Positions 10,020 through 57,040 are shown, counted from the stretch's first letter. The stretch is DNA of 64,000 bases from Amoebophrya sp. A120 (GCA_905178155.1 CAJINV010000006.1:3630169-3694168); one strand, 5' to 3'. Made by a program: numbers and translations. The notes: generated by a model from the letters alone, not told the origin.

Positions 10020-13000
10020 TCAAGGTAGGTGAAAACCATCTCCCTGAAACGGCAGGCGAGGGCCCCGCTCAACACCTTGGTGCCGGCCAGCTTGCCGTGA
10101 AGTTGTTGTTCTTCGGAGCCCTCGAGTAGCCCTTGACGTTGTAGTTTCCATATCTCTTTCTTCTGTTGGTGCTAGTACTACATCTTGGTCGACGTGGTCT
10201 GCAGCGCCACGACCACTGCGCTGCTCATCAATATCATCTCCTGCGTCCCTGGCGTCTAGGCTTAGCAGTCCCATCCCCTGCGCCAAGCTCCGGTCCTGAT
10301 CTAGTAGGTGGTCTTCCGCTACTTGCTCTTGCCCGGGCGGGACTACGCCAACTTCTAGGAGTACTCCTTCTGCTGAAGATGAAGCAGCAACAATACCATG
10401 ATTACCACGACGCTCCTCCGCTCGTTCCTCTTCTCCGCGAGGACCGGAGGCCCTCATTTCATCCATTATTTGTTGCTGCGGCGGTCGACGTTCTTGCTGT
10501 ACTTCTAACGCGGTCGTGCTAGCCCGCCGTGCCCGCAGGGTTTCCACTATTCCCAGTGCATCCATCAGGAGTTCGCTGTCCGGGTCCTCTGTTCCAACAA
10601 ACATAATATTGCCGAGGCGGTTGATATGGAAGCGGGTCAGGATCGAAATCGACAAAGTCGAATGAATCTGCAATGCACACAAAATAAATGCGACGCAAAA
10701 TAAAGCGACTCTATTGCAGAGGATGCGAGGAAGGCGGATTATAGTCCTGGTAAGGGTCAAGAGCAGTTGGGCTGCTGACTAGCATAACAGACAGGAGCCC
10801 TTTTGTTGCCCTAAACCGCGCGACAGACTCGGTTCCAGGACGGGGAAGATTTGTCGCGCTGCGACTACACACTGTTGGTCTAAGAACTTTAACTGGCATC
10901 GATTTTGCGCATCACAAATTTTTCGATCTTGTCGAAGATTTCGATCCTGACGCTTTCATAGTTGATCTCCGCACGAGCCTCGTGGCGGTGCCGTTGGGTA
11001 ACAGTAAGCTCCGAGACCATCTCCTCCCAAACTCCGCGCGTCAATTCGTTTCCAAACACCACTTGTCTTCTTTCCACTCTTTTCTTCAAAAATCCGCGTC
11101 GCAGCAGGATGTCGTTCAAGAGGTACGTATAAGCGACGTCTTTGACGCACCCGGCGAAGAGACAGGCCACGCAGTTGGTGTTTAGTGCGGGTTCTGCCAC
11201 GATTTTGTCACAGGTAAGGTCCAAGCGGCATACCTCTGCTGCTTCGCACCCAAATCGCCAATTCTCCTTGCAATGCGAGGTACCAAGACCGTAGGAGTAA
11301 CAGGCGGGATGGTTATGGAATGGAAATTTCTATTGCCGTAGCTAGCCTAACAACGCAGACAAAATGGCAATGCAAATTCTGTCATTCTGTTTAGTACAAG
11401 CATGCTGTGGTTGAGACTTGTCATGCTGAGTGTTCTTTGGAATAGACCCAAAAGCGTCATGATATTTTTTATCAGTATTTACGTACGTCTGATGTCCTTG
11501 CTGTACGGTAAAAAATCTTCCTGCGGATAAGCGTGATTCCGCGCACAGCAGAGACTGCTGCAAGCACAATTGATGTTATCGCAGCAGGCAGAAGTGCACG
11601 GGCCGTGAGTGAGTTTCCTGCTTCCACAACCTTCGACTTCCTCGGAACAGTAGTGTCTGCAATTTGGGACGCGGGAGCCGCAACACCTGCTGCTCTGTTC
11701 TGCTCTTTCAATAGCTTCGCTTTCTAACTCCGAGAGTGTTTTTTCAAAGTTAGCGTCTTGACCTGCTTGATGTCCTTGCTCCCCGACCTCCTTTGATGAT
11801 GCGTCGTATCTTACACCGCTCAAACTTTCCGGCACGCAACAGAGCTTCTCAAAAATCTTCTTGTTTCCGCACGACAAACTCTCCGCACAACCTGTCACAT
11901 CGTCCCCCAAGAACCGAAACCGGAAGCTGTTCGCGGTCAATTGGAAGGTGAGCAGTGCCTCTAGTTCCTCGGTTAGCGCGAGCAATGCTGGCTGGAGCTG
12001 GTCGATTTGACGGTTTGTTAAAAGCCTACGCCCGTTTTGATGGTCGTGAGCCGGAGCTGTTCTTGTCGTGGCGTGGTCGTGGCTCTCTTGGTACTGTCGC
12101 TCGTCCCCTTGATGCGCGGCAGAAGATGCTGGTGGAGCAACAGTAGAAATACTAGCAGTAGGAGCAGATGACCACGCATCTGGGTCTTGTAATATTCTTG
12201 AAGCCTGCTCCGGCGTTGGCCATAAATCGAGAGCTTCTGTTGTGCTATCTGTTGATGGAGGCATTTCCTGACTTGAAGATGCGCGACCCCGAGGACCTCC
12301 TCCTGCTTCTGTCGAAGGAGGTGGTCTTGCTCTTCTTCCTCCACGACGAGATGCTCTTGAAAAACCTCTTCGTCTTCCAGCCAAGCTCCGCAACGATTCG
12401 TCCACATTTCCAGTCTGCCGGGAAGCAACATCCCGAATTAACACTTGTTCTCGTTCTCTCTCATCCACATATGCATTGCAAAAGCGTCTGGGTCTGGAAA
12501 GGTCGAACCTGTATTGCGTGTCTCGCATGTCTGAAAAATTTGTATTGCATAAGCAGCAAATCAAGCGCCGCACTTTCGTCATGCAGAAGCGCAGTTTGTA
12601 ATGCGTTCTGCGCATGAGAAAGTGTTTGAAAAATTTGTCATGCTGCGCTGCACTTAAAAGCACAGTCAATCATGACCATTCAGCATTACAAGTTTCCAGA
12701 CCCAGGCATATTTGCATTTGATACCACATGCGGGTACACGACTTTTCCCATCTCCAAGGTGTTCATTCTAGACACAACAGCCTTGTTCCCAAGATTCGGA
12801 GAACTGCAACAAGAACTGCTGCATCTTCCCTGTCCTTCGTTTTCTAAACAGTACAAATCCCTTCTTTCAATGTACTTCCAGTGATTGAGCCAGGAAAACG
12901 TATTTTCACCGTTCGAAGACGTGTATTTCCCCGGCTCGAAGAGCGGCGTCACGCACGCACAGAGGCAGCAAGCAAGTGGGCAGTCAGTGGACGAACACCA

Positions 13001-16000
13001 CGAGTCCTCGCCGTTAACCGGATGGTCGTTGCAAGGCGCTAGACACTGTTGCCGCAGGGAAATTTGCGGATCACTCTCCGTCGGCATCTCCGCGAAACCC
13101 GCGGCCGCCGCGTGGGCGTCATCAACGGCAGTCGAGGGCTTTAAAATAATTCCCGGGCAGCAGCTGGGACCGCTACAAACGCGGTCGCACCAGTTGTCTG
13201 GTAAGGCGGGTAGATGGTTCTCGACAGTAATCCGCTTTCGGGATTTCTCGCATTCATCTTTTTCCCTTTGGGTTAGAGATCTCGAGGTCCTGAACCGCTG
13301 CTCGCGCCGGCCCCGCTCCTCGTCATGGAGATGGCGAAAGTGGAGGCTTGTTATGGAACATTGCAAATATGTCCGGATCTTCATCTGGAAGATGAGTGCA
13401 GGAGGGTGTAGTTTCGGCCACACAGATGCTGAATGCCCCACCAGGACTGCTGGAATGCAGACTATCATGTTGGCATCACAGGTTTCATACATTCGCAGAA
13501 CTTTGCGATGCATATGTCGAATGAGACATACCGATCTTGCAGCAGGGCCAAAAAAAAGAGACATGTTGTGCTACCCGCGCAAGACAAATTTTTGTGCGTT
13601 CTAGTACAGGACGCATGACAAGTTGTAACCTTGCTTCGTGATGTTGACCCAGACATATTTGCAAAAATCCGTGGATACCCATGCCATCTGTGCTGTCGCA
13701 GGGAAACATGTGGCCGAACCCGGATTCGCGGTTAGACGAATGGTTTTGAAAAAGACGACGGCTTCGCCCTTGGCTGGCTTGGGAACCGAAGGAGAGGAGG
13801 TTAGTATCGGCTTGCTGGGAAGATGATGATAATCCTCTTCTTGTTGACCTCCGAGAAGATGATCTTGCTGAGGACTCCTCCCGTCGCCCAGTCTCGACCT
13901 GCTCACCACGACGAGAACCTTCAGAGTCGCTAAGAGTCCTGCTGCTTTGATGTTCCCCTTCTCGTTGCTCACCGTCACCCTGAAGACTGCGACGGCCTGG
14001 TCTTGCTCCGTTGCGCGAGGAGCTACTTCGCCGACGACGCGTACTAGTACTATGCGAAGATCTACTCCCGTGGTCTGCTGTTCGGCGACGGTCGTCAGCA
14101 CCAGCAGCACTCTCATCTGTAGGGCGTCCTACCACTGTACTTCTTGGCATCATTTCTACCTGCGCAGGAGCGGCTTCGACAGGTTCTTGTCGTGATGTTT
14201 CATCAGGAGTTTGTTGTCCAGAGCCCCCTGCTCTATTTTGTTGCGACAAAATTCGAAAACCTCCGTTATCTATCATCTCTTTCACCGCAGGCACCACACC
14301 GCAGCCGGTTTTTGCCATGTCGGCGATTTTCGCCACAACGTCGTCATTTTTCACCGTCAACCACAGTGCTTCCTGCAAGGACGGGCAGTCGAGGAGACCA
14401 GATCCCCGGACGGACGGCATTTTGGCGACGTCGGAAAGGCATGAACTGCAAGAGTATCGCACTCGTAGTAATCGCAGTCATGCATGACAGATCTCCATCC
14501 CAAGGTAAAACAGCATGACAGATCTCACTTGTCATGGTGGGCTAATTTGTCATGCGATTTCTACTAGTACGATACTTTTGCAGGTCGTAAAAGGAAAGCG
14601 CGGTCCTCGTCGTGGTGGTTGACGACGTGCTGTGTCCTTTGGGTGGAAAAAGCCCCTTCATCACGACCCTGCTGCTGTCCAACGGCCGGACCTGCAGCTT
14701 CGTCTTCTACTGGGCCTGCGCCTGCGGCCGACGATGCTACAACACGTACATCACTCCCCTCCAACTGCACCGCCAGCAGCTTTTTGATCAGTTGAACCCG
14801 TCTTAACAAGCGGACTAAGAATCTTTGCGAGTTCGCGAAATTCATCTCTTTCAGTGTGAATTTGGTGTGCTTTTTCACGTGTGGGTTCCTGTGTGGAGCA
14901 GAAGATGTTGTTGACCCGATTGTGTCCATGGTCTGTTGTGATGGCGCAGCGACTTCTACGCCGGCGGCTCTCGAGGACGATGGTCGTTGAGCAGGGTAGT
15001 TGCCGGTGCTAGAGTAGCTTGCCTCGTCGTACTCTTGTTCCCGGTCGGTCATGCCAACATCTTGTAGTAATGGACTGACGCTGCTAACGTGCTCCGACGA
15101 GGCAATCGAAGCTGAGCTGCGGTCAGTAGAAGCTCCTGCTGAGGACCTTGTATAATTTCCAGGAGGTTGTGTCTGATGCTGCTGTTGACCTCTCACCAAA
15201 CTTTCTTCCTCACAACTGACGTGGTCCTCCCGCGGCGTACCAGCCGTTCGCTTCCTCGTCTCCCGAAAATCGTCGTGGGTGACTGGATGTTGAAACAGCT
15301 CCAACACCCTACTCCGAAGATGTTGAGCTTCGCGTTGTTTGTCGTTGTCTGCATCCTGTTCTTCTAGCTCGTTTGTTGCAGCACGAGATGTACCTCTACG
15401 AGTCTCAACACCAGAAGCTCGCTGTGCAGCCTGTGCCACCCGCCCGGGGACCTCTGCCAAACCAGCACCTGCGACAGTAGAATGAAAGTGTGCTGCTCCC
15501 GTAATTTGAATTTCGTCACTTGACGCAGTAAAACTGGCCAGCATCTGCAGCATGGTCGAATACGCGTTTGTGTTGACCCAGTTCATCGGCTATCAAATGC
15601 AAATATGTCTGGGTCTGGAAGAATGCAAGTTTGTCATGCTTGTCTGGCATGACTCGAGTGTCTGTGTTGCATAGGCACGAAAAGGGACTCTTACCTGTCA
15701 TGCAAGAACGCAGTTTGCCGTGCGGGACACGTAACACATGACAGCCAGAAAATTTGTCATGCATAGCTGCGCATTGCAGTGCGTCTAGCATCCCTTTTTA
15801 GCATTACAAGTTTCCAGACCCAGACATATTTGCAGTGCATACTGGTGTGCTTACCAGCTCGTTCTTATGCACATCCTCCGTGTTCACCACATTGGCCGTC
15901 CGCGGCCCGCTCGAGCAAGGGGCCCAGTAGGCACGGTTTGTTCCGCAGAAAAAGTCCGAGGAAGCTTGCATGCAGGACTGCGTAGATGCACAACAAAAGG

Positions 16001-21958: not shown

Positions 21959-21999
21959 CGCTACGGCTACTCTTGCTTGTGAGATCCTTATACAACTTA

Positions 22000-22826
22000 C
22001 TTAGCAGTTATAACTTGGAGGGGAACAAGTCGTTGTTTTTCTCGGGGATCATGGGACGATAAAGGGGTTTTTCATACATAGGTTGATGCCACCTGCCGAG
22101 ACGTTTACGATTTCACATGTGAGCAAGCTGGCGAGACGCAGGTCAAGAAACAAGAACCGAAACCGATGAAGATGTTGAACGCATTAATCACTAACAATGC
22201 GAGTAAAACAGCACCAACAACTACTTCACCATCACCGCCTCACGAAACCGACAACAGAGGTACTATTATTGAAAAGTAAAATGCCAAAAAGAAGTTTGAA
22301 TAGAGCACAACTGTACGGTTTGAATATACCACTCACGTGAACCGACACAAACATCTGAAGGTGATGAAGAAAGAATACCGAGAGGAGCATGACGACCACG
22401 AGAGGTTCTAGCACGATCAAATGCATGAACCAACACGTTAACTCAACCGAATTATAAATCTATTTTCACACACGAAACGGAAGACGTCGAACGGACCGAA
22501 TTGTGAACCTTCACACACATCACGATAGCGTGGTCCCCTGAAGACGTCGAAAGGACCGAACTGTGAACCTTCATGCACTTGATGAGGACCGAAGTAACTC
22601 TACCATTTTGTACTTGTTGTAGTGGCTCGCTGTAATTATACAAAAACTCGTTTTGTAATGGAGGACGCACGACGCTCATGCGGCGCGTCTTCACGGAAGA
22701 CCAAGGAAATCTGAACAGATAAGTACTTACTTCTTACACAAAGTGCGGCGACGGACTCTGTAGTTGTTTCTGCAGCGGCTATGTCTGACTGTCACACGAT
22801 TCGCATCAACACGACATCGATCTTGA
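22000..22826. repeat. Duplicated non-coding upstream block, copy 1
   Basis: Colinear with 24088-24868 (CTTAGCAGTTATAACTTGGAGGGGAA ... TCGCATCAACACGAC). Confidence 0.9.
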
Positions 22827-26133: not shown

Positions 26134-26456
26134 TATCAGAAGGAAAAATCCCCCCACCCCATATCGAAGTGGAAATCTGTGACGCGGGACTTGTGTACAC
26201 AAATCGGCTCTGTATTGCAGGAAGGCAACGCGGCTAGATCCCCAGGCTATGCAGGGGCGTATCGGGCTAGTTGCTCAGCATGGCAAACGGCCCCGCTTTA
26301 GGCCCAACAGCATGACCAATCACCTCCATAATGGGGGCGAAGCTTTTGCCCTTGTCTTCTAGCAAGACAGACGTGATTTGTGACCTCAAATCAGCAACAC
26401 AAATTTTCGGAAACATGCCTTTTCGATATGGAGAGGGGGGATTTTTCCTCTCAATA
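26134..26456. mobile_element. TIR element (family F, ends resemble G) between two ~82-bp direct repeats
   Basis: TATCAGAAGGAAAAATCCCCCC..CCATATCGAA / TTCGATATGG..GGGGGGATTTTTCCTCTCAATA. Confidence 0.75.
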
Positions 26457-30100: not shown

Positions 30101-33100
30101 CTTGGTGCGGAGAAGTAGTAGCTTGCCTGCGTCCTCTTCGCGCGGCTCCCCCCGAGCTCCTGCGGCGAGATGACCCGCGCGAAGATGTTCTTCTGGGCTG
30201 CAGTTGTTCATCTTCTGGTCCCCCCAGCCGCATCAAGCGGTCGGCTTCTCCGGTGGGGTTTTCTATGTCGTCTTCAAGCAGGAACGGGCCTCGCGTTCCG
30301 AATTTCTTCTCCTTAGCTCGGCGAGACCGCGAGGAAGACGAGGATCTTATGAAAGTGCACAACTCCCCCTCCCCCTCATTTGTGATGCAAAGTGCCTAAC
30401 TTACGCCTTGCCTCTGGGCACTGTTAGCATGACAAGTTCTGGCAGCCCAAATAGCACTACACTCCTGTCAAAATTTGTCTTGCAAAACCTGTATTCTTGC
30501 TGACGCTTGTATTGCTGTTCATGCAATACAAATGAGGGGGAGGGGGAGTTGTGCATTCTCATAGATCTGCTGCGGGGCCGCGAGGATGAGGAAGAGGAGG
30601 ATCTGCTCCTACTTCTGCTCGAAGAGGTAGAAGTTCTTGATGATTTAGAGCCTGGTGAGGTGGCCATTGTAGGACCTCCAGTGCTGGACACCATCGCAGG
30701 AGTACTAGAGGCTCCTTGTTCTGAAACGCCGCCGCCGTCGCCACGACCGAAGGGGCACCAAGAAGAGGCACTAAATAAGAGCTCCTTCAGCATCTTCTTC
30801 AGATCACTCACTCTCTCGCTTTCAATCACGGCCGTTGCCAGCTCCTTCTGTATATCAAATGCAAACATGTCTGGGTCTGGAAGAATGCAAGATTTGTAAT
30901 GCTGAACTCGCATACTCCCAAACTCTGTAATGCGTGTTGCGGAATAGCGGCGCAGGTGCTTCTGTGTCATGCAAAAACGCAGTTTCTCATGCGTGTTTAC
31001 ACATCACAGGACCGTTAAAAAATCTGTCATGCTCCTCGGCTGCACACTCTAGTAATTTTTTCATTCGTGTATTAGCATGACAAGTTTCCAGAACCAGACA
31101 TATTTGCATTTGATACTGTAATTTCGGACAGTCGAGGAAGCCGGAACCGTTGACAGATGATACAAAAGCGGCGGCATTTTGACTTTGACCACTCGGTGGC
31201 CGCTGCTGCCCAGCACGACTTGTTGCTTTAGCTTTTTCCTCGTCCCCTACGTCTAGGAGCTGCTGCTTCATCCACTCGACTTTCAAAAGCATCCGCAGAA
31301 ACAACCGCTGCTGTTCCGCGGAGGTGAGCTCCTTCACAGCACGCGCGGCAGGCAGGTCCTCGCGCGCCGGCGCAGCTCCTGGAAGATGATGCCGTAGTTC
31401 TTGCATCTCGTGCTGTTCTGGCACATCTTGTTTCTCAACATCTACCCCGGTTTTTACAACGGTTCTTCTCCCCCCGCCCGGCATAAAAGTAATCTCTTCC
31501 AAAAACCCCACCGTCCCCGCCAACACCTGTAACACCCCTTGGTAGGCATCGCCCCCCGCTATCGGGTCGGTCTTGTGCGGCCACGGGCAGTATCAAGTGC
31601 AAAAATGTCTGGGTCTGGAAGATTACTAGCAGGCTTCTCATGCATATTTCGCATAACCCATGATGCCCGTAATGCATGACCTAGCATCACAGATTTTCAA
31701 AGGGACTTCCGATGCGTATTCCGCATGAGAAACGCCCGCTCCGCGTAGCACAAACTGAACTCCTCTTGCTGGTCATGCAATACAGATTTTTTTTTCTTTC
31801 CAAAGACAGCATCACAAGGTGCAACCTTCCAGACCCAGACGTTTTTGCATTTGATAGGCAGAAATACTCGAAATCGCTTGCCGCACACATCCCGCACCCG
31901 GTGCATGGACTTCCACCAACTGCTGTGCGGATATGGATGTGTCAGGATCGAAATCGACAAAGTCGAAAAATTTGTGATGCATAAAATCGATACCAGTTGG
32001 AAGCCCAATTTCTAAGCGGTGCATGACAAATTTCGGCATCGCCTAAATCCAGTTTGTCATGCTGCTTAGGGAAAGAGGGCGCCTTTTGTCATGCTACTTT
32101 AGCATCTCTATCGCAGAGGACCCCAAACAGGCTGACAGTCGGCCTCGCTTGCCGTCCCTGCAAGCGAGGCACTTCATGCCTTGCAGTTTATGCATGGCAA
32201 ACTATTTCAACTTTGACGATTTCAATCCTGACACTTTCCATAGCTGGCACAGCCCAGATACGGCCGGTCGGGGTCCTCGTCCTTCATTTTGCGCAGATAA
32301 TTCCGGTACTCGTCGCTCTTTTTATCAAGTGCGAATATGTCCTCTGGGTCTGGAAGAGTGTAGTAAACTTGTCATGCAGGTTTTTCCATGACGATGACCC
32401 ATGAGGTCTGGAATTATGCGGGACCTAGCATGACAGAGTCTACTGTGAGGTCTCTGCCATCATGCCTATCCTGCATGAGAAACTCAGTCCAAACTTGGTC
32501 GAAAGTGGCGACGAGCTTTTGGCACCCATACAACACAGATTTCTGCATGATTCGGATTTAGCATAACAAGTTTCATCAATCTTCCAGACCCAAACATTTT
32601 TGCGAATCCATACTTTTTCGCCTTTTCCAAGTCAAATTGCGCGTCGTTGAGGAGGGGTAACTCTATCGCAAGAAAAAACTGCTTCACTGTGAACTTGTGA
32701 TGCAGAAAATGCATCACTGAAGTGCTTGTCTTGCTACATGATATCCAAGACAAGTTATTTTTAGCGGTGTTTTCCCTTAGGATCCTTGCATGGCAAGTCT
32801 TCTTTGTAATGTGTAGCGAACTTGTAATGCAAAACTTGCAAAGTCCTTAAAGTGAAACAGTTTTTTCTATACGATAAACTCATCTCGATCTTTATAGGCC
32901 GAATAGATTTCGTGGGCGGTCCGAAGCTCCTTTCTCTGCTTTCTGAGGTATCTAACCTCATTGTAGCTCAGCCTCCTGTGTTCATCTTCCCCGTCATCCG
33001 GCGGAGGCGGGGTGTTGCTAATTCTCTCACGTTCGTGAAACGTGAATCTGGGGTCTGTAGTCTCCTGAGTAAAAACGTCCCCACACCAGAGTCAGGATGG

Positions 33101-34789
33101 GGATTTTGCACCACAAAACTAGGAGTTTTGTGAGTCACGCATGAAAAGCTGCATTCCGCAGTGTAGTGCAGGTTAGCAAGTGCAGCCGCGTCACAGATTC
33201 ATCTGCTCATCCTGTTCACAGCATCAAAAATTCCAAACCACGATTGGAAATGGCTCTCATGGGGATGCGCATTACAAGTCTTCCTGTCTTTGCAAATCTG
33301 CATTACAACTCTGGTGTGGGGACGTTTTTCCTCAAAATATGTAGTTTCCCGAATCTGGGTGGGTGTCTGGAACGGGTGCCGGCGGTAGATGGTCGCTTGT
33401 TCTGGTCCGTTCCGGGCGTCCGCCCGATCATGGCTCCCGGGAGGACGGCGTCTCGCCCGGAGCTCCTCAGTCACCCTGTCCACCTCATACTTGTCGTGGA
33501 ACCGTCGCGCTATCCTGTGCAAAAGTATCGTAGACTCGTATTGCAGTCATGCATTACAAATTTTTTCCCTAAGGTGAATCCGCATTAGAAGTTTTTATTT
33601 TTCATCATGCTGAGGAAATTTGTAATGCATTTTTTTTACGAGTGCGATAATATTGCGGTTCATACGCGCGGCCAAGTTAAAACCCTCAGCGTACTTTTCT
33701 TTGATTTCCTTCTGCTCCCGCGGCAGCCGGACTTTCAAGCTGTGCTATCCTGTGCAAAAGTATCGCACTCGTAGTAATTGCAGTCATGCAAGACAAATTT
33801 CTTTTTCAAGCTAAATCAGCATGACAAACTCCATTTCTCATGCTGAGCTAATTTGTATTGCAATACTACGATTACGATACTTTTGCACAGGATATGTGCA
33901 GAGGATTCACAATGTCCGGGTCAATGGGCGGGCGAAGGGCTTGAAACTCTTCAGTCTCAGCTAGGACACTCGGCGGCCGGACTTTCCAGGCTTATGGAAG
34001 CGTCAGGTTTGAAATCGACAAAGTTGAAATGATTCGCCATGCATAAAATGCAAGGCATGAAGTGCCTGTCTTGCCGGGCTGGCAAGCGAGGCCGACTCTC
34101 AGCCTGTTTAGGGTTTGGAGTAGAGCTGCTAAAGTAGCATGACAAAAGCAGTCGTCTCTGCCCAAACAGCATGACAAATTGGATTCCGGTGCTCGGAAAA
34201 TTTGTCATGCACCGCTTGAAAATTGGGCTTCCAAGGGTATCGATTTTATGCATTGCAAGTTATTTCAACTTTGACGATTTCAATCCTGACGCTTCCATAA
34301 GGCTTCCATCGCCTGTATCTGAAAAAGGAGCTCGAGAAGGAGGGTCGCCGTTTCTCGACGATTTTTTTCTGTCAAATGCTGTTCCTGCTCGGACGATGCT
34401 GAATCTGCTGCGCCTCCGCTTCCTGCTGAACGACGAATCGTTCTGGTACTCGTACTACCAGTCGGGGGCGACTCTACTTGCCCTTGCACAACAGATGATG
34501 AAGGGCAAGGGTCAGCGGCTAGTAGCGGTTCCACCTGCGAATGATGAAATTCATCTCCACGGCGAGTGGACGACGACCTCGCTGAGTTTGATGAATTGCG
34601 CGGCGATAAAAGGCTAAGTCCACCTCCTTCGGACAGTGGTGTTGCGCCAGCTCCTGCTGCATTGCTTGTTGCGCTTATCAACACGAAGACGAGGCTTGTT
34701 GTAATGGCGAACACGTCAAACACACGAAGCAGTAGAAACCTCATGTCGACGCGTCCGCGTGGCAAAGTTAAAGTTTGCATTTTCTCCAA
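27140..34789 (-). CDS. 14-exon Cys-rich signal-peptide protein, unknown function; paralog of 10020-16889
   Basis: 13 elements removed, each join in frame (e.g. MEA|WKV, LH|SLK, ETT|DPR, KLQ|KEL, LKA|IIL). N-terminal FAITTSLVFVLISATSNA. Confidence 0.8.
27194..27455. mobile_element. Introner family A
   Basis: DR AGCAG. Confidence 0.92.
28269..28490. mobile_element. Introner family E
   Basis: TIR TATGA..GTGCACAACTCCCCCTCC; DR TTGCC. Confidence 0.92.
29339..29485. mobile_element. Introner family B
   Basis: TIRs clear; DR diverged (CGACG/AAACA). Confidence 0.85.
30348..30563. mobile_element. Introner family E
   Basis: DR GATCT. Confidence 0.92.
30853..31115. mobile_element. Introner family A
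   Basis: DR CTGTA. Confidence 0.92.
31591..31856. mobile_element. Introner family A
   Basis: DR GGCAG. Confidence 0.92.
31932..32242. mobile_element. Introner family C
   Basis: DR diverged (GCGGA/GCTGG). Confidence 0.88.
32323..32612. mobile_element. Introner family A (divergent)
   Basis: DR CTTTT. Confidence 0.85.
32664..32876. mobile_element. Introner family D
   Basis: DR AACTC. Confidence 0.88.
33061..33339. mobile_element. Introner family G
   Basis: IR AAAAACGTCCCCACACCAGAGT; DR TGTAG; in-frame join. Confidence 0.85.
33511..33664. mobile_element. Introner family B
   Basis: DR CGCGC. Confidence 0.9.
33746..33894. mobile_element. Introner family B
   Basis: DR TGTGC. Confidence 0.92.
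33993..34299. mobile_element. Introner family C
   Basis: DR AGGCT. Confidence 0.92.
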
Positions 34790-36186: not shown

Positions 36187-39100
36187 TCATTTCTCCGTGA
36201 CGAAGGCATTTTTGATTTTTTTCAACGTTTCTTCCGTGATACTTTTCTCCTTCTCTTCCTCTTCTTTCGCCTGCTTCGCTGCCGCCTCCGCCGCCCGGCG
36301 CGCCCGGGCCTTTGCTGCGAAGGGACAACCCCCGCCTGTGGGTTTGATTTCTTCTTTCTCGGAAGGAGGATCGTCTTTTTCTGAAGTTGATGACGGACAC
36401 GGACGACGATTCGCTACGCTGCTATTTCCGCCCGCTGTGCTGGTGCCCGCGGAGGTGGCGGCTTCGTTATTGTCGGACGAAGAAGATCCCCCTGCTGCAG
36501 AAGTTTCATCAACTTCTTCTTCGCCGTCCTTCGTCCCTTTCGTTGCCGAAACTGACACGGGCGGGGGTGGTACCCGCATCCGCACTGGCGTGCCAAATCC
36601 GGCTGGGACGTTACTATCGACCGCTTCTGCCTCATTCAACGTTTGTTCTGCCGTCGGTCCGGCCTGCTGTTCCACGCCCGTTTGGTGAACACCGAAGGCC
36701 GACTGTTGTAAAGGGATGATTATGCAGATCGAAAGTATCCACCTATCGCATTTTCTCATTACAACTACTTCTACTTTCTGTTTCTACATCTACTAGCTTT
36801 CAATTTGATAGCATTACAAATTTGCTAAAAAGGAGCGGAACCGGAATTTGTCATGCTGATCCAGGTATAGCAAGTGGATTTGTCATGCAGTTTTTTTTCT
36901 ATCACAATCAGTACGAGAACGACGAGTGCGAGGATACTTTTGCAATTCATACCCGAAGCGCCGAACGATTCGTCGAGTGCTGGGGGCCACTGAAAAGCCT
37001 TCAACCCGTATCCAAGAAAAAAAGATTGTAGGTGTAAAGTAACTTTTTTGCAGGAACAGCATTACAAATCTCTGTGGCATGAGAGCAAAACCTGTCATGC
37101 GCAGATAGTACCGGAAAACGCGGCCGAATGGACCCTACAACGCATTCCCAGCATGACAGACGCAATCATCTTGCATGTCGCGCATCACAAACTTACAGTA
37201 ACAACGTTTTTTTCTTGGATAACCCGACGAAAAACGGGCCAAGAGACTCGATGAATTCGGATGTGTGCCGGGTCTTCCGCATGTCCTGGATCACTTTGGC
37301 CAGGGGATGGAGCTGCTTTCCCACAAGCCCTATGACAAACTCGTTGTCCTTCTCATCGAGACCTGGTGTTTGATTTGTGTCTTTCAATTTGTTCATCTTC
37401 ATGCAATTTCAGCATGACAGGGCATGTTTTGTTCTGTGATACCGGAAATTGAAACTGCTCTAACTATGTCTGATGCTGATGCTGATCTTCTTCTTGTTCA
37501 CACGACTACAAAATAAATGTCAAAATCCAACTTCACCTGTAGCCTGCAGCCTGATATCATGCGCCAAGTTCTTTTCCCCGTAACTTCTGCCAATCAGCGT
37601 ATCAAATGCAAAAGTGTCTGGGTCTGGAAGGATGCAACTTGTGATGCTACTTTTGGACTCTACATGAAATCTGTATTGCATGAACAGGAAATAAAGAGGC
37701 GCAATTTGTGCTACGCGGAGAGGGTATTTCTCATGCGGCATGAGCATTAGAAAGCCCTCGCAGAATCTCTGATGCTGGGGCATGCATCACAGACCTCGTG
37801 GGCCCTGCAAAATCTGCACGACAAACTTCTGCACTCTTCCAGACCCAGACATTTTTGCATTTGATACAGCGCGTGCTCCAACAACATCTCGCACTGCGCT
37901 TCCGGCTCCTCTAGATAGAATTTTCCGCACCTTCGCAGCGGTATACAGTGCAAAAGTATCGCACACGCACTAGTATAAATTGCATGACAAATTTGATCAG
38001 CATTACAAATGAAATTTCTCATGCTGATTCACCTTGAGTAGAAAGAGATTTGTCATGCATAATTGCAATTACTACGAGCACGATACTTTTGCAGTGGATA
38101 AGCGGGTACCAGATGCAATACTCGTGCTCCTTTTTCATCGCCATCTTCACCGGCTTTTGCAACAACGCGTAATCCAAATCTTGTTTTTGAGGGTGCACAA
38201 CTCCCCCTCCCCCTCATTTGTCTGGTATGAACAGCAACACAAGCAACAGCAGGATAGGGGCTTTCGCATGACAAATCTGCGCGCAGATTGTAGTACTATT
38301 TGAGGTTCCAAAATTTGTCATGGTAGCAGTGCTTACGAGCAAGGTGTGAGTTTGGTACTTTGCATTACGAATGACGGGGAGGGGCAGTTGTGCACTCTCA
38401 TATTGTTCGTGGCCGTTGGAGTAGGTTTTGCCGAACATGGTGTGCAGCAACCGCGCTTTCGTGTTATGCAATGCAAAAGCATCGGACGTAGTACAAATTG
38501 CAATACGAATTGTATGTTCCAGAGGGAAAGTTGGAATTTGTAATGCCACACCAGATGGAATGCCAAATCTCTCATGGATAATATGCCATTACCACGGGCG
38601 CGATGAAGATGCTTTTGCGATGCATACGTGTCCCCGTGTTGCAACAATGGATTTACGTGCTTCACGAAGTACGACGGGTCTTGGGACCAGAAGAGCAGCC
38701 CAACTTGCGTCGGGTGGTAAATGTGGGAGTACAGGACGTGCGGGATTTTCTTGCTGGTCAAAATCAGGTGGAATTGACGTAAAGTTTCTTCCGAGGAGAG
38801 CTGGTTTGCCGCAGTGAAGTGGTCTGGAGTGCTCGCGCCATGTAGGTCGTAGACCAGCAGCTGCATCCAGAGTCTGGGTTGATAATGATGGTAGTATAAG
38901 TTGACGTTGATGAACTTGAAATACATAGACCAATATTAGCTGCGTGGTGAAAGAAAAAAACTTCAAACCAAAGGCTACCACTGAGCGATCATTCAACTAC
39001 ATCTTCAGATCGACGATGATCAGCTACAACGGAAGTAGAACGTACTTCTAGTTCCACCTACTACCTGTAGTCTACCGCATCCCCGTTCCCGCCCCGCTCT

Positions 39101-43117: not shown

Positions 43118-46100
43118 TCACAGAAACATCTTCTTGATCGCATCCCAGTTTTCCAGCACCAGTTATGGCGTTCTCAACTGTTACATTCTCAACTGTTACA
43201 TGAATTTGTGATGCAAGAATGGGAAAAGTGATAGGAGAGATCTTGCGCGTCTTGCATGACAGGTTTGGCGCCGATTATCAGCCTGCTTGGCCCTCTGCGA
43301 ATTTGTCATGCGAAGCAGCTTGATGGTGTAGATTATGAAGGCAATTCTGCATGACAAACCATGTAACAGTTGAGAATGTAACGTTTGAGAGCCCCATACC
43401 AGTGTCATTTTCCGCAGCAGGATGTGGTCCTATCCTGTGCAAAAGTATCGCAGTCGTGTAAGTGCAAGTCTTGCATTACAAATCTTTCTCTGAAGGCAAA
43501 TCCGCATTACAAATTCTATTCCTCATGCTGAGGAAATTTGTAATGCATGACGTCGCCTCGGTAGTGTCGTGGCCTCGGTACGCCACTACAAGTTGGCGCA
43601 CCGAGGCTAGAAGAGGGCTCTTTAGGACGCGCATACAAAATGGCGCACCGAGGCCAAAAATGCCCGTTTTTCGGAATGGCCGCCTCGGTGCACCGAGGCG
43701 GACGGCCTCGGTGCGCCAAATTGTAGTCGGGAACAAAGCAGCAGACGGGCGGAACACAACAGCAGAAATGGAAAAAAGCGCTCGGGGCGCGGCGGTGCCA
43801 AGATTGTTTTTTTTGGGGTGAGACGGTGAGACACGTGAAACAAATTCGATGCTGTTGCCGTGCGTTCGAGGTAGTGCTCGTCGCGCGACGCCGCGAGCAG
43901 AAGCTCCCGCGGAAGGCAAGGGGCGACGCAGGCGCGGGCGTGTGCGAAGCGAAAAAACGCACGCGAAATCGCGAAGCACGCGAGCGCAGAGAAAATGGGG
44001 GGGGGCGGGGGGGGGGAGGACCGGGGGCCCATCGGCTAATTCGCGAGGTCACGCCGCGGGCCTTGATGGTGGGCAGAAAAACAAAACCCGTACCCTTGCC
44101 CGCGTCCGAGGGCAAGGTAAAAATAAAACGCAGGAGGCGAAGGCGCCTGCGCCACCTGGGACAGGTGTGCGATGGGACGTTTTTGCGCGCCGCCTCGGTG
44201 CGCCAAAATGTATTGTGAAGGCGCGCCGCTACAATACCAATTTTGTAGGTGGGCAAAAAGACATATTTGGGCGGGCTCGGTGCTGCCATACGTTACAAAC
44301 CGCACCGGGCTCGGTGCTGCTTTTTGGCGGGTTTTCTCAATGAAAAAAGCGCGAAAATTGTAACGCCCCACATACGATTTGGCGTACCGAGTCGTATGTG
44401 CGTACCTAGGCCACGTCATGCATTTATACGAGTACGATACTTTTGCAATGCATAGGTCCGACCGGGAAACCAAATCCACGATCCGCGGCACCTATCAAAT
44501 GCAAATATCTCTGGGTGTGGAAGATTGCTAGGTTTGTCATGCATATTTTGCATGACCCAAGAAGTAGACGCCTGTAATGCATTATCCAGCATCACAACAT
44601 TTGAGAGGGCTTCCTGATGCTCATTCCGCATGAGAAATGCCACCTCCGCGTATTACAAACTAGACTGTTCTTGCTGGTCACGCAATACAGATTTTTTCAG
44701 AATCCAAAAGCAGCATCACAAGTTGCAACCTTCCAGACCCAGACACATTTGCATTTGATAGCACCCCGTTGCCCGACTCCAGATCGGCGATTGGTAATCG
44801 CTTCACCTTCTCACTGACCCAGTACACCAGTGGCGCGCCGATCGTCACCCGAATCACCGTCAACGCATGTTTGTTGTCCCAATTCGGCTGGAGTTGCACC
44901 GGCTGCGCGATGTAGCACTTGGAGGCGAGAATGTCGGAAAGGTTTTCGATCACGTGTGAACCGTAGGGGCCGGGTAAAATCACCGTGGTGTCGTTTAGGG
45001 TGGATTTCTGCTCGTCGGTCAGGGAAAGCTCGAACTTGGACAAGTCCATCGACATCAGTTTGTGCAATTTTTTCAACTCATCTAACCCCAACCGTTGCTT
45101 GTTCGAGACGGAGTTCTTCACGGGACCGCGGCAAATCAACGAAATGATCGTGTTGCACCACATCATGCCCTGATAGAAGTTTAGTATAGCATTTATGCAT
45201 CACAAACGGGTATCATAGGTTTCTCATCATCTTCATCTTCAGTAGTACTTACTGCAGCATGATCACAAAGTCATGCTCTATTTGCAGCAGATTGCTACTT
45301 CTACTCATTCAGACTGGGTGGATACGCAGGCGCAGTAAAGAAAACATAATTACTAAACAATACCGCGTCCTGTTCTTTCGTGGTCTCCGTTCCCTCATTC
45401 TCCCCGTTAGTACAAGCAACCCCAGCTGTGCCACTAGTTGCCCCAGCTCCTACCGCCAACTGTCCACTCCTGGGCCTCGGTAGGAACATGTTGTGACCAC
45501 CACCACTACTGTGAAAATCTCCCCGGGGGGAATTCGACACAAACTCCCTTTCCTCTTCGACGCACTCCAGAAACGGCGATTTCAAACCCTTCACGATTTC
45601 GCGGACGGACTCCACCCAGGTTTTCAGGATGTTGTCGCGCAAGGGTTCCGGAATTGCGTGGTACAGTTTGATTTCGTTCAGCGCCATCTTCCACCGCAGC
45701 ACCACTCCCCAATTCAGCATGCGGGCGACCCCGGTCGTGGTCTTCTTGATGCAAGACCGCATCTTCGGCAAATCAGTATGCAGTGCAAAAGCATCGCACT
45801 CGTACCAATCGCGTTTATGCATTACAAATCTTTTTGGAAAGGCAAATCCGCATGACAAATTCAATTTGTAATGCTAAGTCAATTTGTAATGCAATTTATA
45901 CTAGTACGATAACTTTTGCAATTCATAATCAGTAGATAATAGTGATTCGTCCATGAAGAGCGGGAAGTGCTTCAACTGGAACCGCAAATCTTCGTCGTTT
46001 TTTCCGCTGTGCTCACCCCAAATATCCTCGCACGATTCCAATTCCTTGCTGTAGCACAAGGGCAACAGCACCGCACCGGAGAACGGCGGACCGCCGTAGA

Positions 46101-49100: not shown

Positions 49101-49457
49101 ATTTTAGCATCACAAGTTTCCAGACCCAGACAAATTTGCATTTGATACCCGCCCGGGGTTTTCAAATCCGACATTTTGTTGTTCGCGAAGGTGCAGTATG
49201 AACTGCAAAAGTACCATCGCACTCGTAGTAATTGCAGTCACGCATTGGAAATCTTTTTTTTAAGGTAAATCCGCATTACAAATTTTATTTCTCATCATGC
49301 TGAGGAAATCTGTAATGCATTTCGACGAGTACGATACTTTTGCATTTCATATGCAGCTGCCATCGTTCGCCGTCGTCGTGCCAAAAAGCTCCTGCTGCCG
49401 GCCCAGCGAGGGGCAGGAGGGCGACCGCTTCAAAGCCGAGGACTTGCGGATCGTCAT
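43118..49457 (-). CDS. PLP-dependent transferase-like (fold type I) protein, multi-exon
   Basis: Joined motifs GGDDRL..GVNKY, SGSDAEY, GEVGSGT, HVVAGSKTG, IDACQGR, TGSKFYGGPPFSGAVL, NWGVVLRW; ends KMTLVLENWDAIKKMFL*. 12 TIR elements plus one likely GT-AG intron (45170-45363). Start uncertain (possible extra exon near 49599). Confidence 0.8.
43164..43398. mobile_element. Introner family H
   Basis: TIR TATGG..TCTCAA..GTTACATTCTCAACTGTTACATG; DR CCAGT. Confidence 0.9.
43431..44454. mobile_element. Introner family B containing a nested MITE
   Basis: DR GGTCC; family-B ends intact. Confidence 0.9.
43548..44418. mobile_element. 871-bp GC-rich non-autonomous TIR transposon (MITE) nested in an introner
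   Basis: TIR TGACGTCGCCTCGGTA / TACCTAGGCCACGTCA, TGCA duplicated on both sides, many subterminal GCCTCGGTGCGCC repeats. Confidence 0.85.
44493..44760. mobile_element. Introner family A
   Basis: DR GCACC. Confidence 0.92.
45777..45927. mobile_element. Introner family B
   Basis: DR ATCAG. Confidence 0.9.
46167..46399. mobile_element. Introner family E
   Basis: DR CTGCA; join DACQGRLQ|EGAL. Confidence 0.92.
46449..46674. mobile_element. Introner family D
   Basis: DR CCCGG. Confidence 0.9.
46712..46931. mobile_element. Introner family D
   Basis: DR ATGGA/ATCGA. Confidence 0.88.
47590..47851. mobile_element. Introner family A
   Basis: DR GAGCA. Confidence 0.92.
48087..48233. mobile_element. 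Introner family B
   Basis: DR CCCGG. Confidence 0.9.
48607..48759. mobile_element. Introner family B
   Basis: DR GGCAT/GGCGT. Confidence 0.88.
48890..49147. mobile_element. Introner family A
   Basis: DR CCAGC/CCCGC. Confidence 0.85.
49197..49351. mobile_element. Introner family B
   Basis: DR TGCAG. Confidence 0.9.
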
Positions 49458-52684: not shown

Positions 52685-55600
52685 TTACTGATGAAAGTAC
52701 GACTGATCCCGATTCTTGTCCCGATTGCTCCCCCGCGGCGTGCAAGCTCCGGATACGTTGCTTCTGGGCATCATGCTGTTTTCGGAGTTGTAATTTTTGC
52801 CGTTCCAATTTTGCTCCTGTTGCTGCCTGCTTGTTTCTTGGTAGTACGAGAATTGTGGTCCACCACGACCTCCACCTCCAAACGTAGGGCTATTTTTCGC
52901 ACGACCTCCTTTATAATTTTTCCCGACACTGTAAAAATTGGAATCCAACTCCGAGGTGCTGCACGATACTCCTTTGTAGTAATGATGTGCAGTAGACGTC
53001 GCCCGCCCTACAGCTGGTTGTGGATGTAGTTCTTGTGAAACAAAATTATTCAGGGGCCGCACTCCTGTTGGTCGTGGAGCAGTACTAGTAGAATTAGAAG
53101 CCATGTAATTATTCCGATCGTCGTAAAAATTGTCAACATCGCGCGACTGCTGCTTAGAACTCGTCGTCCACGACGGCTGCTGATAGAAGTGGTTGTCCTG
53201 GTCATGGTGGTACTGCTGCTGCTTGTTCATCTGGTCATGCCCCTGGTCGTGTCCCTGCCGCCCCCCGAATCCACCTGGATAGTTGTTCACATGATCATCC
53301 AACGGCGCCGCCATCGCAACTCCTGCCGCGCTATGTTGGGTATTCTCATTTCCATATGGTGTCGAGGGTACTGCTTGTTGTATGATCGGGTAATTTGAAC
53401 ATACTGGCCCACCACGACCCTTGTTCAACATCTGGGGCCCGACGAGATGGTCGGTTTGCAGCTTGTGCATGTGCAGCCCACCGCGCCAATATTCCGCACT
53501 TCCACGTGGCTGTGCCATGACTGCGACACGGTCGGCGAAGGATGGTCGTGCTCTTGGCAGAGATATGGATTCATCAGAGTTGAAATCGACAAAGTTGAAA
53601 TAATTTGCCATGCATAAAATGGATGCCAGTTGGAACCCAGTTTCCAAGTGGCGCATGACAAATTTCGGCGGTCCCTAAATCCAGTTTGTCATGCTGTTTA
53701 GGCAAAGAATAGTGATTTAGATTTTCTCATGCTACTTTAGCAGCTCGAGCTGTAACCCCAAACAGGCTTACAATCGGCCTCACTTGCCTGCTCTGCAACA
53801 CACGTACCTCGGGTCATGCATTTTATGCATTACAGATTATTTCAACTTTGACGATTTCAAACCTGACAGTTCCATAAGAGAAGGATCAGAAGTATCTGCT
53901 GTACCACGAGGACCGTCGTGTATGGAGGTGTCAGAGTTGAAATCCGCAAAGTTGAAATGATTTGTCATGCATAAAATGCGACACAAAGACTGACTCTATT
54001 GCTGAAGGCGCAAGGGAGGCAGATTCTAGTGCTGGTAAGGGTCAAGAATTGGGCTGCTGACTAGCATGACAGGGAGCAGCCATCTTGCCCTAAACAGCAT
54101 GACAGACGTGCTTCAGAGGCCAGGAAAATTTGTCATGCACCGATTGGAAACTGTGGGTCGAACTGGTATAGATTTTATGCATCACAAATTATTTCAACTT
54201 TGTCGATTTCAACTCTGACACATCCATATCGTGGTCTTCCCCGCTACAAGTCTGTAGTTGTCCCGGAAGATGATGTTCATGATGCAGTTGTCCCGGATCT
54301 TGCTCTTGGTGCACGACCGCGTTTTTGTTTTTGAGCAGGTTGTCGTCCTGTTGGAGGTAAGAAGTACTAGACTGTGGAGCTCCTCCTGCGGCCATCGCCA
54401 TGTTGTCCCCGCCGCGCGGCACGCCATCTCGTCGCCCAGCATCTTCGCGGACGACGACAGCAGGTCGTGCTGTGGGGGCAGCAGCAGCTCCTGTGCTGGC
54501 ACAAGAACCGCCTCCTCCACTAGAAGCGGGAGCAGGAGATGAACACACCTTCTTCACTGCGGCGGCCGGAGGTGGACAAGAAGTAGGTGGGGAACAGGAA
54601 TTCGCATGATCGGCATCCCGGAGCATCCGCTCCACCAAGTTTCTTTTGCTGGAAGAGATATTCTCCGGGTGGGCACCAGTACCAGCCGGTAGTTCCAGCT
54701 CGTGAGTTCCCTCAAATAACTGCTTGCTGCCTGATACTTGATTTTCGTTTCCTGGATTATTTTCGAGGTCGATTTTCAGCCTATTTGATGTTCCTCGCGG
54801 CCCAGGTCTCCATCTCATCTGCTGGCTCGTCCCGGCACGCACAACCTGCTCCGCATCGTATTCCACCAGCGTTTCGACCCGATCCAGCAGCTCCGTGACC
54901 GCTTTGTGCACGGTGAAGCTGAGTAAATGCTGGTTCCTATTCAGTTCTTCAACAGTCCGGGTTGGTGGGGACGACGACGACGAGGTGCTTAAAATTGTTC
55001 CAGGAACTCCCGCCGCATTGGGGGTCGACGTCGTCGTAGCCGTGGTGGATGTTGTTGTAATACCCTTGTCTACAACAACTGGCGCAGCAGCAGCAGCGGT
55101 TCTAACCGGCTCCCCAAACCGGTCGAATTGCGAAGTCAAAACGACGTCCGACACGGCAACGCGCTTCTTGTTCGAAATCTGCGCGCCCAGCCTGTTTTCG
55201 GCCTGCTCCTGCGTGATGTGTATCCAAGAAAAAAACTGCGTATAGTGTAACTTTCTTTGGCTGACAGCATCACAAATTTGCTCTACGTGTTGACAGAGAA
55301 AACCTGTCATGCGTGGCTCGAAAGGGAAAACACACACGAAAAGAGGACTTCATGGTTGTCTGGCATGACAGGTGTAACTCTGTTGCATGGTCTGCATTAC
55401 AGAGTTACACTTACACAGTTTTTTTCTTGCATAATGTGATCCCGTGCCATAATCCGCTCCACCTGCACCTCCCGGTTACAGAAGACCGACCAGATATGAG
55501 AGTGCGCAACTACTCCCCCTACAACTGCCCCTCATTTGTCATGCAAAAACCCAAATCCAGTTGTTACCTATACCTCCTTGTGGCACCGCGTGGATGACAA

Positions 55601-56897
55601 ATTCCGCCGATGGAACAAGTTCCAAACAGTACTACACTCGGCGTATGAATTTGTCATGCAGCACCGGGTCCACCTGTACTGGTTTATTCTTTTTGTCATG
55701 CTCTTCATGCAATACAACATATCAGGGGGAGCGGGAGCAGTTCTTGTGCACTCTCATACCAGACTTCGTCACAGGGCCACTGGGCCTCCAGCAACACAGC
55801 AGCGTCCAGAACCGCGACAACTATGCATTGCAAAACTACTCGTACAAATCGTATTTATGCATCACAAATTTCTTTGTCAAGTTAAACCCGCACTACAAAT
55901 TCCATTTTTAATGCTGAGAAAATTTGTAATGCAATTTATACTAGTACGATTATAGTACTTTTGCATTGCATAACAATGCGATTGCTGCAAAACTGGAGTG
56001 CGGTTTTCCAGTTGCGTTTATTCTTCTTGGTGTTCGCCGATGTTGCAGACGGCTGATTGCTTTCATCATCGACTGTTATTTCCGGCGCAGCGTCCTGTTG
56101 CCCTCCTTTGTTAACGGCAACAGTTACATTCCTCGCAAGCGCTTCCGCTTTTCCCAGCGCTGCTTCTGCGACCTGCATATTATCTTTGTTTATCGTGTGC
56201 AAAAGTATCGCACTCGTATAAATGCATTACAAATTTCCTCAGCATGAGAAAAAAAATTTGTAATGCGGATCGACCATAAGAAAAGGATTTGTAATGCATG
56301 ATTGCAATACGAGTACGATACTTTTGCACAGGATATTGTTGCTCTTCGACCGACTCCGTTGCTTGCTGGTGCCACGTATCAAGTGCAAATATGTCTGGCT
56401 CTGGAAGATGATTGCGAGATTTGTCATGCTTGTCTAGCATGACCAAAAAGTTTGTGACGCGTGTCAAAGAAGAGACCCTTTTGCCTGTCATGCAAAAACG
56501 CAGTTTGTCATGCGAAACACGCAACACAAAGAAGCGCAGATATTTTTCATGCTTGGCTGTGCAACATTACAGAGCGTTCACTATTCCCAACGCAGCATTA
56601 CAAGTTTCCAGACCCAGACACTTTTGCATTTGATACCACGGTTGCGGTCAGTAACCAGGGAATTCCGTTGGGAAGCGGATTTTTCTTCTTGCAGCTGCCT
56701 GTAGGCACACTCAAACTCTTCGACCTGTGGTGAAGTTTTTGAATTTTATCAAGGTCTGTCATGCAGAGCCGGCATTAATATCAAAAAATGCGGTTGGAGG
56801 TTGAGGTTGTGATGCAAACATAGCTACTTGATGTACTACTCTCTATGCAGAACATCAAAGCTTTTTCCATCCGTACCTCCTCTGCGATCTGCAGACA
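52685..56897 (-). CDS. Dephospho-CoA kinase (CoaE/COASY-type) domain protein with long low-complexity C-terminus; 5' part lies beyond the window
   Basis: Joined exons read VLDAAVLLEAQWPCDEVWSVFCNREVQVERIMARDHITQEQAENRLGAQISNKKRVAVSDVVL, the typical C-terminal half of DPCK. Confidence 0.85.
53564..53876. mobile_element. Introner family C
   Basis: DR AGAGA. Confidence 0.92.
53921..54228. mobile_element. Introner family C
   Basis: DR TCGTG. Confidence 0.92.
55221..55433. mobile_element. Introner family D
   Basis: DR ATGTG; join ARDH|ITQE. Confidence 0.92.
55495..55758. mobile_element. Introner family E
   Basis: DR CCAGA; join DEVW|SVF. Confidence 0.9.
55822..55972. mobile_element. Introner family B
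   Basis: DR ACAAC/ACAAT. Confidence 0.88.
56191..56335. mobile_element. Introner family B
   Basis: DR TTGTT. Confidence 0.92.
56377..56635. mobile_element. Introner family A
   Basis: DR CCACG. Confidence 0.92.
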
Positions 56898-57040
56898 TAT
56901 CAAATGCAAAAATGTCTGGGTCTGGAAAGAATGAAATTTGTGATGCTAACTTTCGATGATTCAAAAACCTGTATTGCATGAGGAGCAGCCGGCACTCAGA
57001 TTTTTGCTATTCCGAGAAGGCATTTCTCATGCAGTATAGG

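Follow-up and report, generated by a model that had tools for sequence, protein, structure and literature searches.

An apparently undescribed internal motif shared by the introner families of Amoebophrya sp. A120

INTRONERS IN THE A120 WINDOW

Minus-strand genes in a 64,000-nt stretch of the genome of Amoebophrya sp. A120 ("the window", i.e., the whole stretch that was analysed) are broken up by introners, which are short elements whose inverted ends read TAT...ATA and whose target duplications are 5 bp long. Introners have already been published. Here, we describe a conserved internal motif, apparently new, that recurs in these elements with fixed spacing, and we discuss what might keep it there. 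Tens of thousands of non-canonical introns are present in Amoebophrya, and how they are moved and spliced is open according to the available passages of PMC7789003. A 217-aa exon in the window is 100% identical to P0001, an A120 protein of 917 aa. The host gene of P0001 (43121..49457, minus strand) has 14 exons, with 12 introners that carry terminal inverted repeats (TIRs) and one GT-AG intron.

The window contains 51 curated elements: 40 kept from 47 automatic calls, after seven were dropped as false or nested, and 11 added by hand. Gene strand was assigned by codon scores, and 45 of the 51 scored minus. A scan with the TIR pattern gave 135 metagenome loci (482 kb, non-overlapping) that carry the same families as the window; because these loci were picked by a family 0 pattern, family 0 is over-represented. 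The same pattern had no match in viral contigs. Window and loci together provide 420 elements; 11 families with at least four members (numbered 0–10) account for 396, and 24 fall outside these families. The 91 elements without an assigned strand were omitted from strand-dependent counts, and families 7–10, being too small, from the substitution and covariation tests. Hidden Markov model (HMM) searches found 521 copies, of which 20 scored below 60 bits and were omitted from substitution counts. Transcript evidence consists of contigs from runs X4 and X5, whose RNA status is a software guess, while contigs from run X1 are DNA; raw RNA reads (X10) were uninformative, with only 12 placed on the window.

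Family 0 introners (~260 bp) lie at 12470-12723, 15591-15841, 18588-18846, 27194-27455, 30853-31115, 31591-31856, 32323-32612, 37600-37866, 44493-44760, 47590-47851, 48890-49147, and 56377-56635, with a degenerate relative at 13352-13677. Family 1 introners (~150 bp) lie at 14440-14589, 18224-18386, 19307-19452, 21047-21205, 29339-29485, 33511-33664, 33746-33894, 37942-38100, 43431-44454 (interrupted by a foreign element), 45777-45927, 48087-48233, 48607-48759, 49197-49351, 55822-55972, and 56191-56335; singletons at 36721-36951 and 38465-38626 look alike. Family 2 (~213 bp) is found at 18935-19147, 19909-20122, 32664-32876, 37009-37221, 46449-46674, 46712-46931, and 55221-55433; family 5 (~220 bp) at 28269-28490, 30348-30563, 38186-38402, 46167-46399, and 55495-55758; and family 6 (~308 bp) at 10625-10960, 19528-19835, 31932-32242, 33993-34299, 53564-53876, and 53921-54228. 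Families 3, 4, and 8 are represented once each, at 33061..33339, 26134..26456 (a transcript contig skips 26130-26457), and 43164..43398, respectively.

All families share TAT ends, the TAT end being also a detection criterion, an A-rich block at positions 11–14 (A at TIR positions 11–13 in 86–93% of ends), and 5-bp target duplications, which match at five of five positions in 368 of the 521 HMM-found copies and at four of five in 91. At TIR positions 4–8, in all families, the two ends are often non-complementary (43–79%), and the change rate is at or above background. Each family has its own conserved short repeats at TIR positions ~15–30. With the motif and the first 14 bases masked, comparison between families gave a single weak hit (E 0.036), although masking takes out so much sequence that the power of this comparison is limited. 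The first-pass annotation called the families "otherwise unrelated"; in view of their common ends and duplications, they are not entirely so. Its letters, A–H, could not be matched to our numbers. Short, numerous, bounded by TIRs and target duplications, and without coding capacity, introners have the properties of transposable elements of the miniature inverted-repeat type (MITEs), i.e., non-autonomous TIR DNA transposons. A few intact-looking elements (29339-29485 in the window, and others in loci L018, L050, and L042) have fully unmatched flanks, with zero or one of five positions agreeing, which suggests recombination between copies rather than ageing.

A MOTIF CONFINED TO INTRONERS

The motif was first noticed as an octamer, TGTNATGC/GCATNACA, of which the window contains 159 exact copies. 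TIR elements hold 148 of these in 11,731 bp (12.6/kb), where 1.5 copies would be expected from base composition, and 50 of the 51 window elements have at least one. Elsewhere, there are three copies in a nested long terminal repeat (LTR) element, one in 6,513 bp of sequence covered by transcript contigs, none in a 6,678-bp open reading frame (ORF), and seven in the remaining 31,297 bp, where 3.6 are expected. Matches lying wholly within elements number 146, whereas 200 order-2 Markov shuffles of element sequence averaged 4.75 and never exceeded 12. The first-pass annotation had the octamer recurring across element families, with very few copies in exons or in the "6.6-kb" ORF, and it proposed a count of motif density; these numbers agree with it and show a clear enrichment over background. 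Also, 19 of 21 TGTATTGC/GCAATACA copies are in elements.

The recurring word is, however, longer and looser than the octamer. The widened consensus is an 11-bp sequence, GCA-W-N-A-S-A-R-R-T (GCAWNASARRT), with the octamer as its core. At N, in exact copies read as GCATNACA, G (79) and T (46) outnumber C (28) and A (6). At least one internal site of at least 9 bits is present in 419 of the 420 elements, and 355 have sites in both orientations. Conserved sites in family 0 are at ~42, 73, 127, 166 (TGT first), and 215 (GCA first), and in family 1 at 35, 53 (GCA first), 70, and 102 (TGT first); in family 3, all six conserved strong sites point in the same direction. We considered, and rejected, the idea that the TIR is itself a copy of the motif, since in families 0 and 1 alone is this true, and there only of some ends.

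Outside elements (~318 kb), 18 hits of at least 15 bits were found, against 7, 7, and 3 in three shuffles. This near-chance frequency bears on the proposal that the word serves a chromatin or silencing protein of the host, or an enzyme that modifies bases, and is kept for reasons unrelated to transposition or splicing. Such a role would suit a word that is strand-independent and shared with an unrelated retroelement (see below), but not one barely above chance outside elements, and an element would gain nothing by conserving a silencing mark; we regard the proposal as very improbable.

Small motif clusters in AT-rich DNA without a clear family match, at 396-519 in locus L035 and at ~2998-3206 in the non-overlapping part of L061, are possibly very old introners. 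The motif offers a simple way of recognising such old, decayed elements. The ORF mentioned above occupies window positions 3-6680; it is intronless, of low complexity, longer than 2,200 codons, and free of introners as well as of exact motifs. GC-rich islands (63–70%) between genes, at 7000-9000 and 39900-41300, are also motif-free.

SELECTIVE CONSTRAINT ON THE MOTIF

In family alignments, the modal-base fraction is 0.87–0.97 at the seven core positions and 0.73 both at N and in the background, although these fractions are inflated because sites were chosen by motif match. Private substitutions, counted against the three nearest relatives in 473 copies, have frequencies of 0.034 in the core, 0.083 at N, 0.089 in the background, and 0.061 in the inner TIR. 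The ratio of core to background is 0.33–0.42 in all five divergence bins, while that of N is 0.85–1.07. Taken together, the estimates put change in the core at ~0.35–0.5 times the background rate. Among the top fifth of the most conserved internal columns, 58% fall within motifs, though motifs cover only 31%.

Because the core is constrained in every divergence bin and N is free, neutral decay from a common ancestor is rejected as a full explanation, and it would be hardly credible as such. Spacers and inner TIRs have also diverged between families. Ancestry may nonetheless explain the origin of some motif cassettes, since ends and some cassettes are shared; for instance, families 1, 2, and 10 have a +18/+17 triplet in common. 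We conclude that purifying selection acts on the motif core but leaves N free, and that the motif is a genuine, selected cis-element in a known introner system, apparently undescribed. No mention of it was found in the available passages of PMC7789003, PMC12130899, PMC9860276, PMC11282704, PMC11453091, and bioRxiv 10.1101/2020.10.14.339549, although figures, the journal version of Roy et al. 2023, or theses could mention it. Likewise, no internal motif appears in 12 of the 14 supplementary files of PMC12130899, of which the remaining two could mention it, or in the supplement text of PMC7789003. A single conserved word with strict geometry could be used as a concrete bait in pull-downs and could be targeted by mutagenesis.

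SPACING AND HELIX PHASING

Counted at the level of families, 15 of 25 adjacent direct pairs of sites are separated by 31–33 bp, in nine of the 11 families. This refines the earlier estimate of "about 30 bp". The example given for that estimate is exact: TGTGATGC at 37640 and TGTATTGC at 37672, two TGT-first copies 32 bp apart on the plus strand, form a module at 37640..37679. The spacers of these modules contain a degenerate inverted copy: in 12 of 18 modules (~1 expected), the best match precedes the second site by 15 bp. The unit thus consists of a forward copy, an inverted copy at +16 or 17, and a forward copy at +31 to 33.

Two sets of distances are phased with the DNA helix. First, divergent pairs (n = 10) have spacings of 16, 36, 45–48, 58, 68, and 70 bp (R 0.85, p 0.0017, for a scan of periods between 9.5 and 11.5). 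Second, the outermost TGT-inward sites (n = 14) are 33–34, 42–45, 48, or 56 bp from the element end, mostly 33–34 or 42–45 (R 0.71, p 0.002; p 0.048 with one site per family). Subfamilies differ in end distance by about one helix turn: the right-end distance in family 0 is 34 bp in 56 copies and 43 bp in 66 copies, a 9-bp step, and the end distance in family 4 is 45 bp in eight copies and 56 bp in 22 copies, an 11-bp step. Spacing periodicity and conservation relative to flanking sequence had been suggested as checks when the octamer was first noticed; spacing proves to be fixed and partly helix-phased, and the core is constrained relative to background, contrary to neutral decay.

SPLICING REGISTER AND RELIC INTRONS

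Contigs from X4 and X5 join exons across elements without extra letters, and the P0001 gene model agrees, whereas X1 contigs retain the elements. Removal therefore occurs at the RNA level, and the suggestion of the first-pass annotation that the octamer "marks removable DNA" needs correcting accordingly, as the elements stay in the DNA. Divergence between the two target copies of an element allows the cut to be placed: on the transcribed strand, it lies 1 nt before TAT and 4 nt after ATA. This register is unambiguous at 15587-15842 and 26130-26457 (minus strand) and compatible with two further joints, 11309-11529 and 13347-13677. It seems to be tied to the TIR ends, irrespective of which bases are present; intron positions +2 to +5 would come from TAT[GC]. 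Under the TIR register, the first intron base in 320 copies is G in 111, C in 75, A in 70, and T in 64, in line with the GT, CT, AT, and TT starts of Table S4 of Farhat et al., and these copies have no preference for AG at the presumed 3' cut.

Several introns without an intact TIR pair contain exact motifs. A GT-AG intron at 45169..45362 (minus strand), supported by a transcript contig, begins G-TAT, has an exact motif at 45197, and is likely an old introner. A degenerate introner at 11309..11529 (minus strand), skipped in a transcript contig, has one at 11419. Two non-TIR introns are predicted only by a crude gene finder: 37381-37536, with an exact motif at 37412, and 56699..56853 (minus strand, boundaries uncertain), with exact motifs at 56757 and 56808.

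Spliceosomal branch points have a UNAC core, are read on one strand, and lie near the 3' splice site. As a branch point, the motif was considered and rejected: both strands are constrained, sites occur throughout the element, and A is the rarest base at N.

DNA OR RNA?

If inverted copies base-paired, the resulting fold could bring the two ends of the intron RNA together. Hairpins have been proposed for A120 introns in the available passages of PMC7789003, and folds predicted for families 1, 4, and 6 have roughly half of the sites paired with an inverted site (30/56, 48/92, and 56/94). However, N positions in inverted pairs are complementary in 476 of 1,258 cases, with 541 expected, i.e., there is no covariation, and in families 3 and 7, whose strong sites are essentially one-way, pairing is almost absent (4/94 and 0/28). 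Interior folds have z-scores of only −0.6 to −2.8, G-U shows no excess over A-C between TIR arms, and a scan of the window against Rfam gave no match; neither compensatory changes nor a match to a known structured RNA were thus found. Pairing would also not require one same word across families. RNA folding, already largely refuted, is very improbable as the reason for the motif.

Both orientations of the motif are constrained, at 0.49 and 0.39 of neutral, and there is no consistent orientation bias by family. Together with the constrained core, the free N, the fixed and partly helix-phased spacing, and the lack of pairing covariation, this lends indirect support to the earlier proposal that the octamer is a binding site for a common factor.

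NESTED ELEMENTS

A family-0-type introner near the end of the window (56898-57040 and 63937 to 64000) is split by a Copia-like LTR retrotransposon (57041..63936, minus strand) with 359-bp LTRs and a 5-bp target duplication. This element is young (LTRs 99.4% alike). Its matches to rve and RVT_2 are weak, below Pfam cut-offs, and a search for the integrase region among shorter proteins gave no match. Its AT-rich leader (63225..63573, minus strand), just downstream of the primer-binding site, has strong motif sites at 63295, 63436, and 63524 and a weaker one at 63239, all pointing one way, where 0.05 would be expected at 10 bits or more; the 3' untranslated region (UTR) has two sites, against 0.14 expected. 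Sites in this retrotransposon and in relic introns speak for a factor that is not restricted to a single transposon family and may be encoded by the host.

These sites raise the possibility that the word is a packaging or integration signal shared with Copia-like retrotransposons, on whose machinery introners would hitch-hike. The four one-way copies directly after the primer-binding site fit such a signal, as do the 5-bp, integrase-type duplications of both retroelement and introners, the TAT...ATA ends, which are one transition from TGT...ACA, and a report of an A120 TIR family with Copia-like homology in the available parts of PMC12130899. A strong motif copy in the AT-rich stretch of another nested insert, that of locus L073 (below), would fit too. 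Yet there is a single retroelement, its leader spacings (56, 141, and 88) ignore the introner grammar, and the TIRs of introners are conserved and family-specific, as is typical of DNA transposons, while neither primer-binding site nor LTR is present in introners. We consider hitch-hiking improbable.

The interrupted family 1 introner at 43431-44454 contains a foreign TIR element (43548..44421), GC-rich, with its own CCTCGGT-type repeats near both ends and no motif; since only 0.05 motifs are expected in its 874 bp, their absence is a weak contrast. The 1-kb composite of introner and foreign element is not in the P0001 gene model. Neither this element nor the retroelement has relatives in the loci. 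Family 0 introners hold further inserts, at 476-2934 in L073 and at 632-1465 in L016, the former with a 415-aa ORF and the AT-rich stretch noted above. Both were considered as autonomous elements on account of their long TIR pairs and rejected as nested insertions. File 8 of PMC12130899 lists rve/RVT_2 domains for an A120 introner family of 3,852 copies; nesting of retrotransposons inside introners may explain these domains.

A Pfam scan gave hits in one of ten ORFs. Upstream regions at 21995-22825 and 24084-24867, which precede two minus-strand genes, are duplicates of one another (71% alike, ~900 bp).

MOBILISATION OR SPLICING?

When selection acts on the motif can be approached through the age of copies. 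Comparisons of loci with one another and with the window yielded no orthologous insertions, so that target-site mismatches were the only means of estimating change after insertion; such mismatches are present in 97 copies and absent from 315 (412 of 473 copies, those with well-defined ends). The age-linked excess of substitutions is 0.017 (0.005–0.028) in the core, 0.020 (0.003–0.036) in the background, and 0.024 in the inner TIR. Sites thus appear to decay almost neutrally after landing, which points to selection at the mobilisation step. An earlier idea, that sites are retained after insertion (core/background 0.50 in old copies), was dropped after this analysis. We lean toward selection of the motif at transposition rather than at splicing, although the tests are not decisive; the question is now testable with existing genomes.

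On balance, we somewhat favor the view that the sites form a phased array, bound as double-stranded DNA by one common factor that mobilisation requires, similar to the subterminal repeats of Ac or CACTA elements. One protein common to all families would bind the 11-bp array cooperatively and help assemble the transposition complex. The family-specific repeats at TIR positions ~15–30 would be read by family-specific transposases, and the shared array by a shared accessory protein, which could be a DNA-binding protein of the host or a second protein of the transposon and would sit on the helix face that the end complex also occupies. Once a copy has lost the array, it would no longer spread but would continue to be spliced, its TIR ends determining the cut.

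Several observations count against this view. Phasing is incomplete: convergent pairs (16–17, 34–36, and 50–51) lack a 10.5-bp periodicity (p 0.30), that of the outermost GCA-inward sites (n = 8) is not significant (p 0.11), and the right end of family 1 has a 4-bp shift (43 in 40 copies, 39 in 13). Moreover, families may have cassettes in common by descent, which reduces the independence of spacing values. Intervals in the decay test are wide; the test barely excludes continued constraint, for which ~0.007 would be expected, and it is blind to redundancy among the four to six sites of an element, where a splicing role could hide. Sites that read UGUNAUGC on the transcript are slightly, though not significantly, better kept (odds ratio 1.17, p 0.13, difference interval −0.000 to 0.019). 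No cognate autonomous element or transposase was found in the 546 kb searched, where long TIR pairs are nested insertions, and no candidate binding protein was found. Lastly, a site borne purely by a transposase does not account for the exact copies in relic introns or for the leader and 3' UTR sites of the Copia-like element.

Some of these observations could instead reflect an intron mark imposed by the host. A host protein, bound to DNA during transcription or to pre-mRNA, would recruit a U1-less spliceosome to the TIR ends, and the site would occur in both orientations because elements insert either way. This would account for the occurrence of a site in 419 of the 420 elements, of which 355 carry both orientations, even though inner TIRs differ by family, as well as for the survival of exact copies in relic introns, the sites in non-coding parts of a retrotransposon inside an intron, and the slight strand tilt. 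It also accords with the failure to detect U1 in A120, where no transposase was found either (PMC7789003, available passages). By contrast, decay after insertion is indistinguishable from background, phasing to element ends is easier to explain on DNA, and the cut register follows the TIR. Family 3, most of whose one-way sites have the transcript reading GCAUNACA (25 vs 12; uncorrected p 0.047), contradicts the tilt, and 20 of 24 crudely predicted GT-AG introns, most of these predictions being unreliable, have no site. We regard a host-imposed mark as possible but rather unlikely.

The mobilisation and splicing roles could also be combined. One host-encoded protein would polymerise on the 16/32-bp alternating array in every introner, scaffolding transposition for many different transposases and also, as the gene is transcribed, flagging the element for a U1-less spliceosome that cuts at a fixed register from the element ends. 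We find this combination doubtful. If true, the dual-role protein would represent the licence, so far missing, by which any transposon can turn into an intron in Amoebophrya, and the Copia-like retrotransposon would have acquired its sites to live inside such introns.

COMPARISON WITH KNOWN SYSTEMS

The elements in the window agree with A120 introners as described in the available passages of Farhat et al. 2021 (PMC7789003). The authors described inverted repeats with a TAT start, ~7 variable bases, and an A run, together with short direct repeats, in introns with non-canonical ends and T at +2. The window elements come from the same organism and have the TAT start, the variable middle, the A run, and direct repeats at the junctions, within the 3–5 nt that the authors specify; they are also removed from mRNA with non-canonical ends. 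These passages deal with terminal repeats only, reporting neither family-specific inverted-repeat motifs for MITE families nor an internal word or spacing rule, although the figures could differ. In the available parts of Gozashti et al. 2025 (PMC12130899), many A120 families are TIR DNA elements of unassigned superfamily, and element lengths in our set match those families.

Three groups of DNA transposons offer parallels, each drawn here from the available parts of one source. IS3EU/GingerRoot elements, which transpose in an integrase-like manner, share TA..TA termini with introners; however, their target duplication is usually 6 bp, rather than 5 bp (PMC10045372). CACTA elements have a reiterated direct and inverted motif inside their ends, read by an accessory TNPA-like protein whose binding can affect splicing (PMC4219821). 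Introners lack the CACTA ends and the 3-bp duplication, and their motif spans all families, whereas CACTA motifs vary by subfamily. In maize Ac/Ds, subterminal AAACGG repeats are bound cooperatively by the transposition protein, and short, non-autonomous elements such as Ds1, otherwise dissimilar, share TIRs and a repeated internal word (PMC3260210). Introners differ from these hAT elements in having 5-bp rather than 8-bp duplications and many family-specific TIRs in place of one 11-bp TIR; their word, moreover, is near-universal, has a fixed geometry, and extends through the whole element, and its binding is putative. By analogy, the introner array would work most like the AAACGG repeats of Ac/Ds or the subterminal repeats of CACTA.

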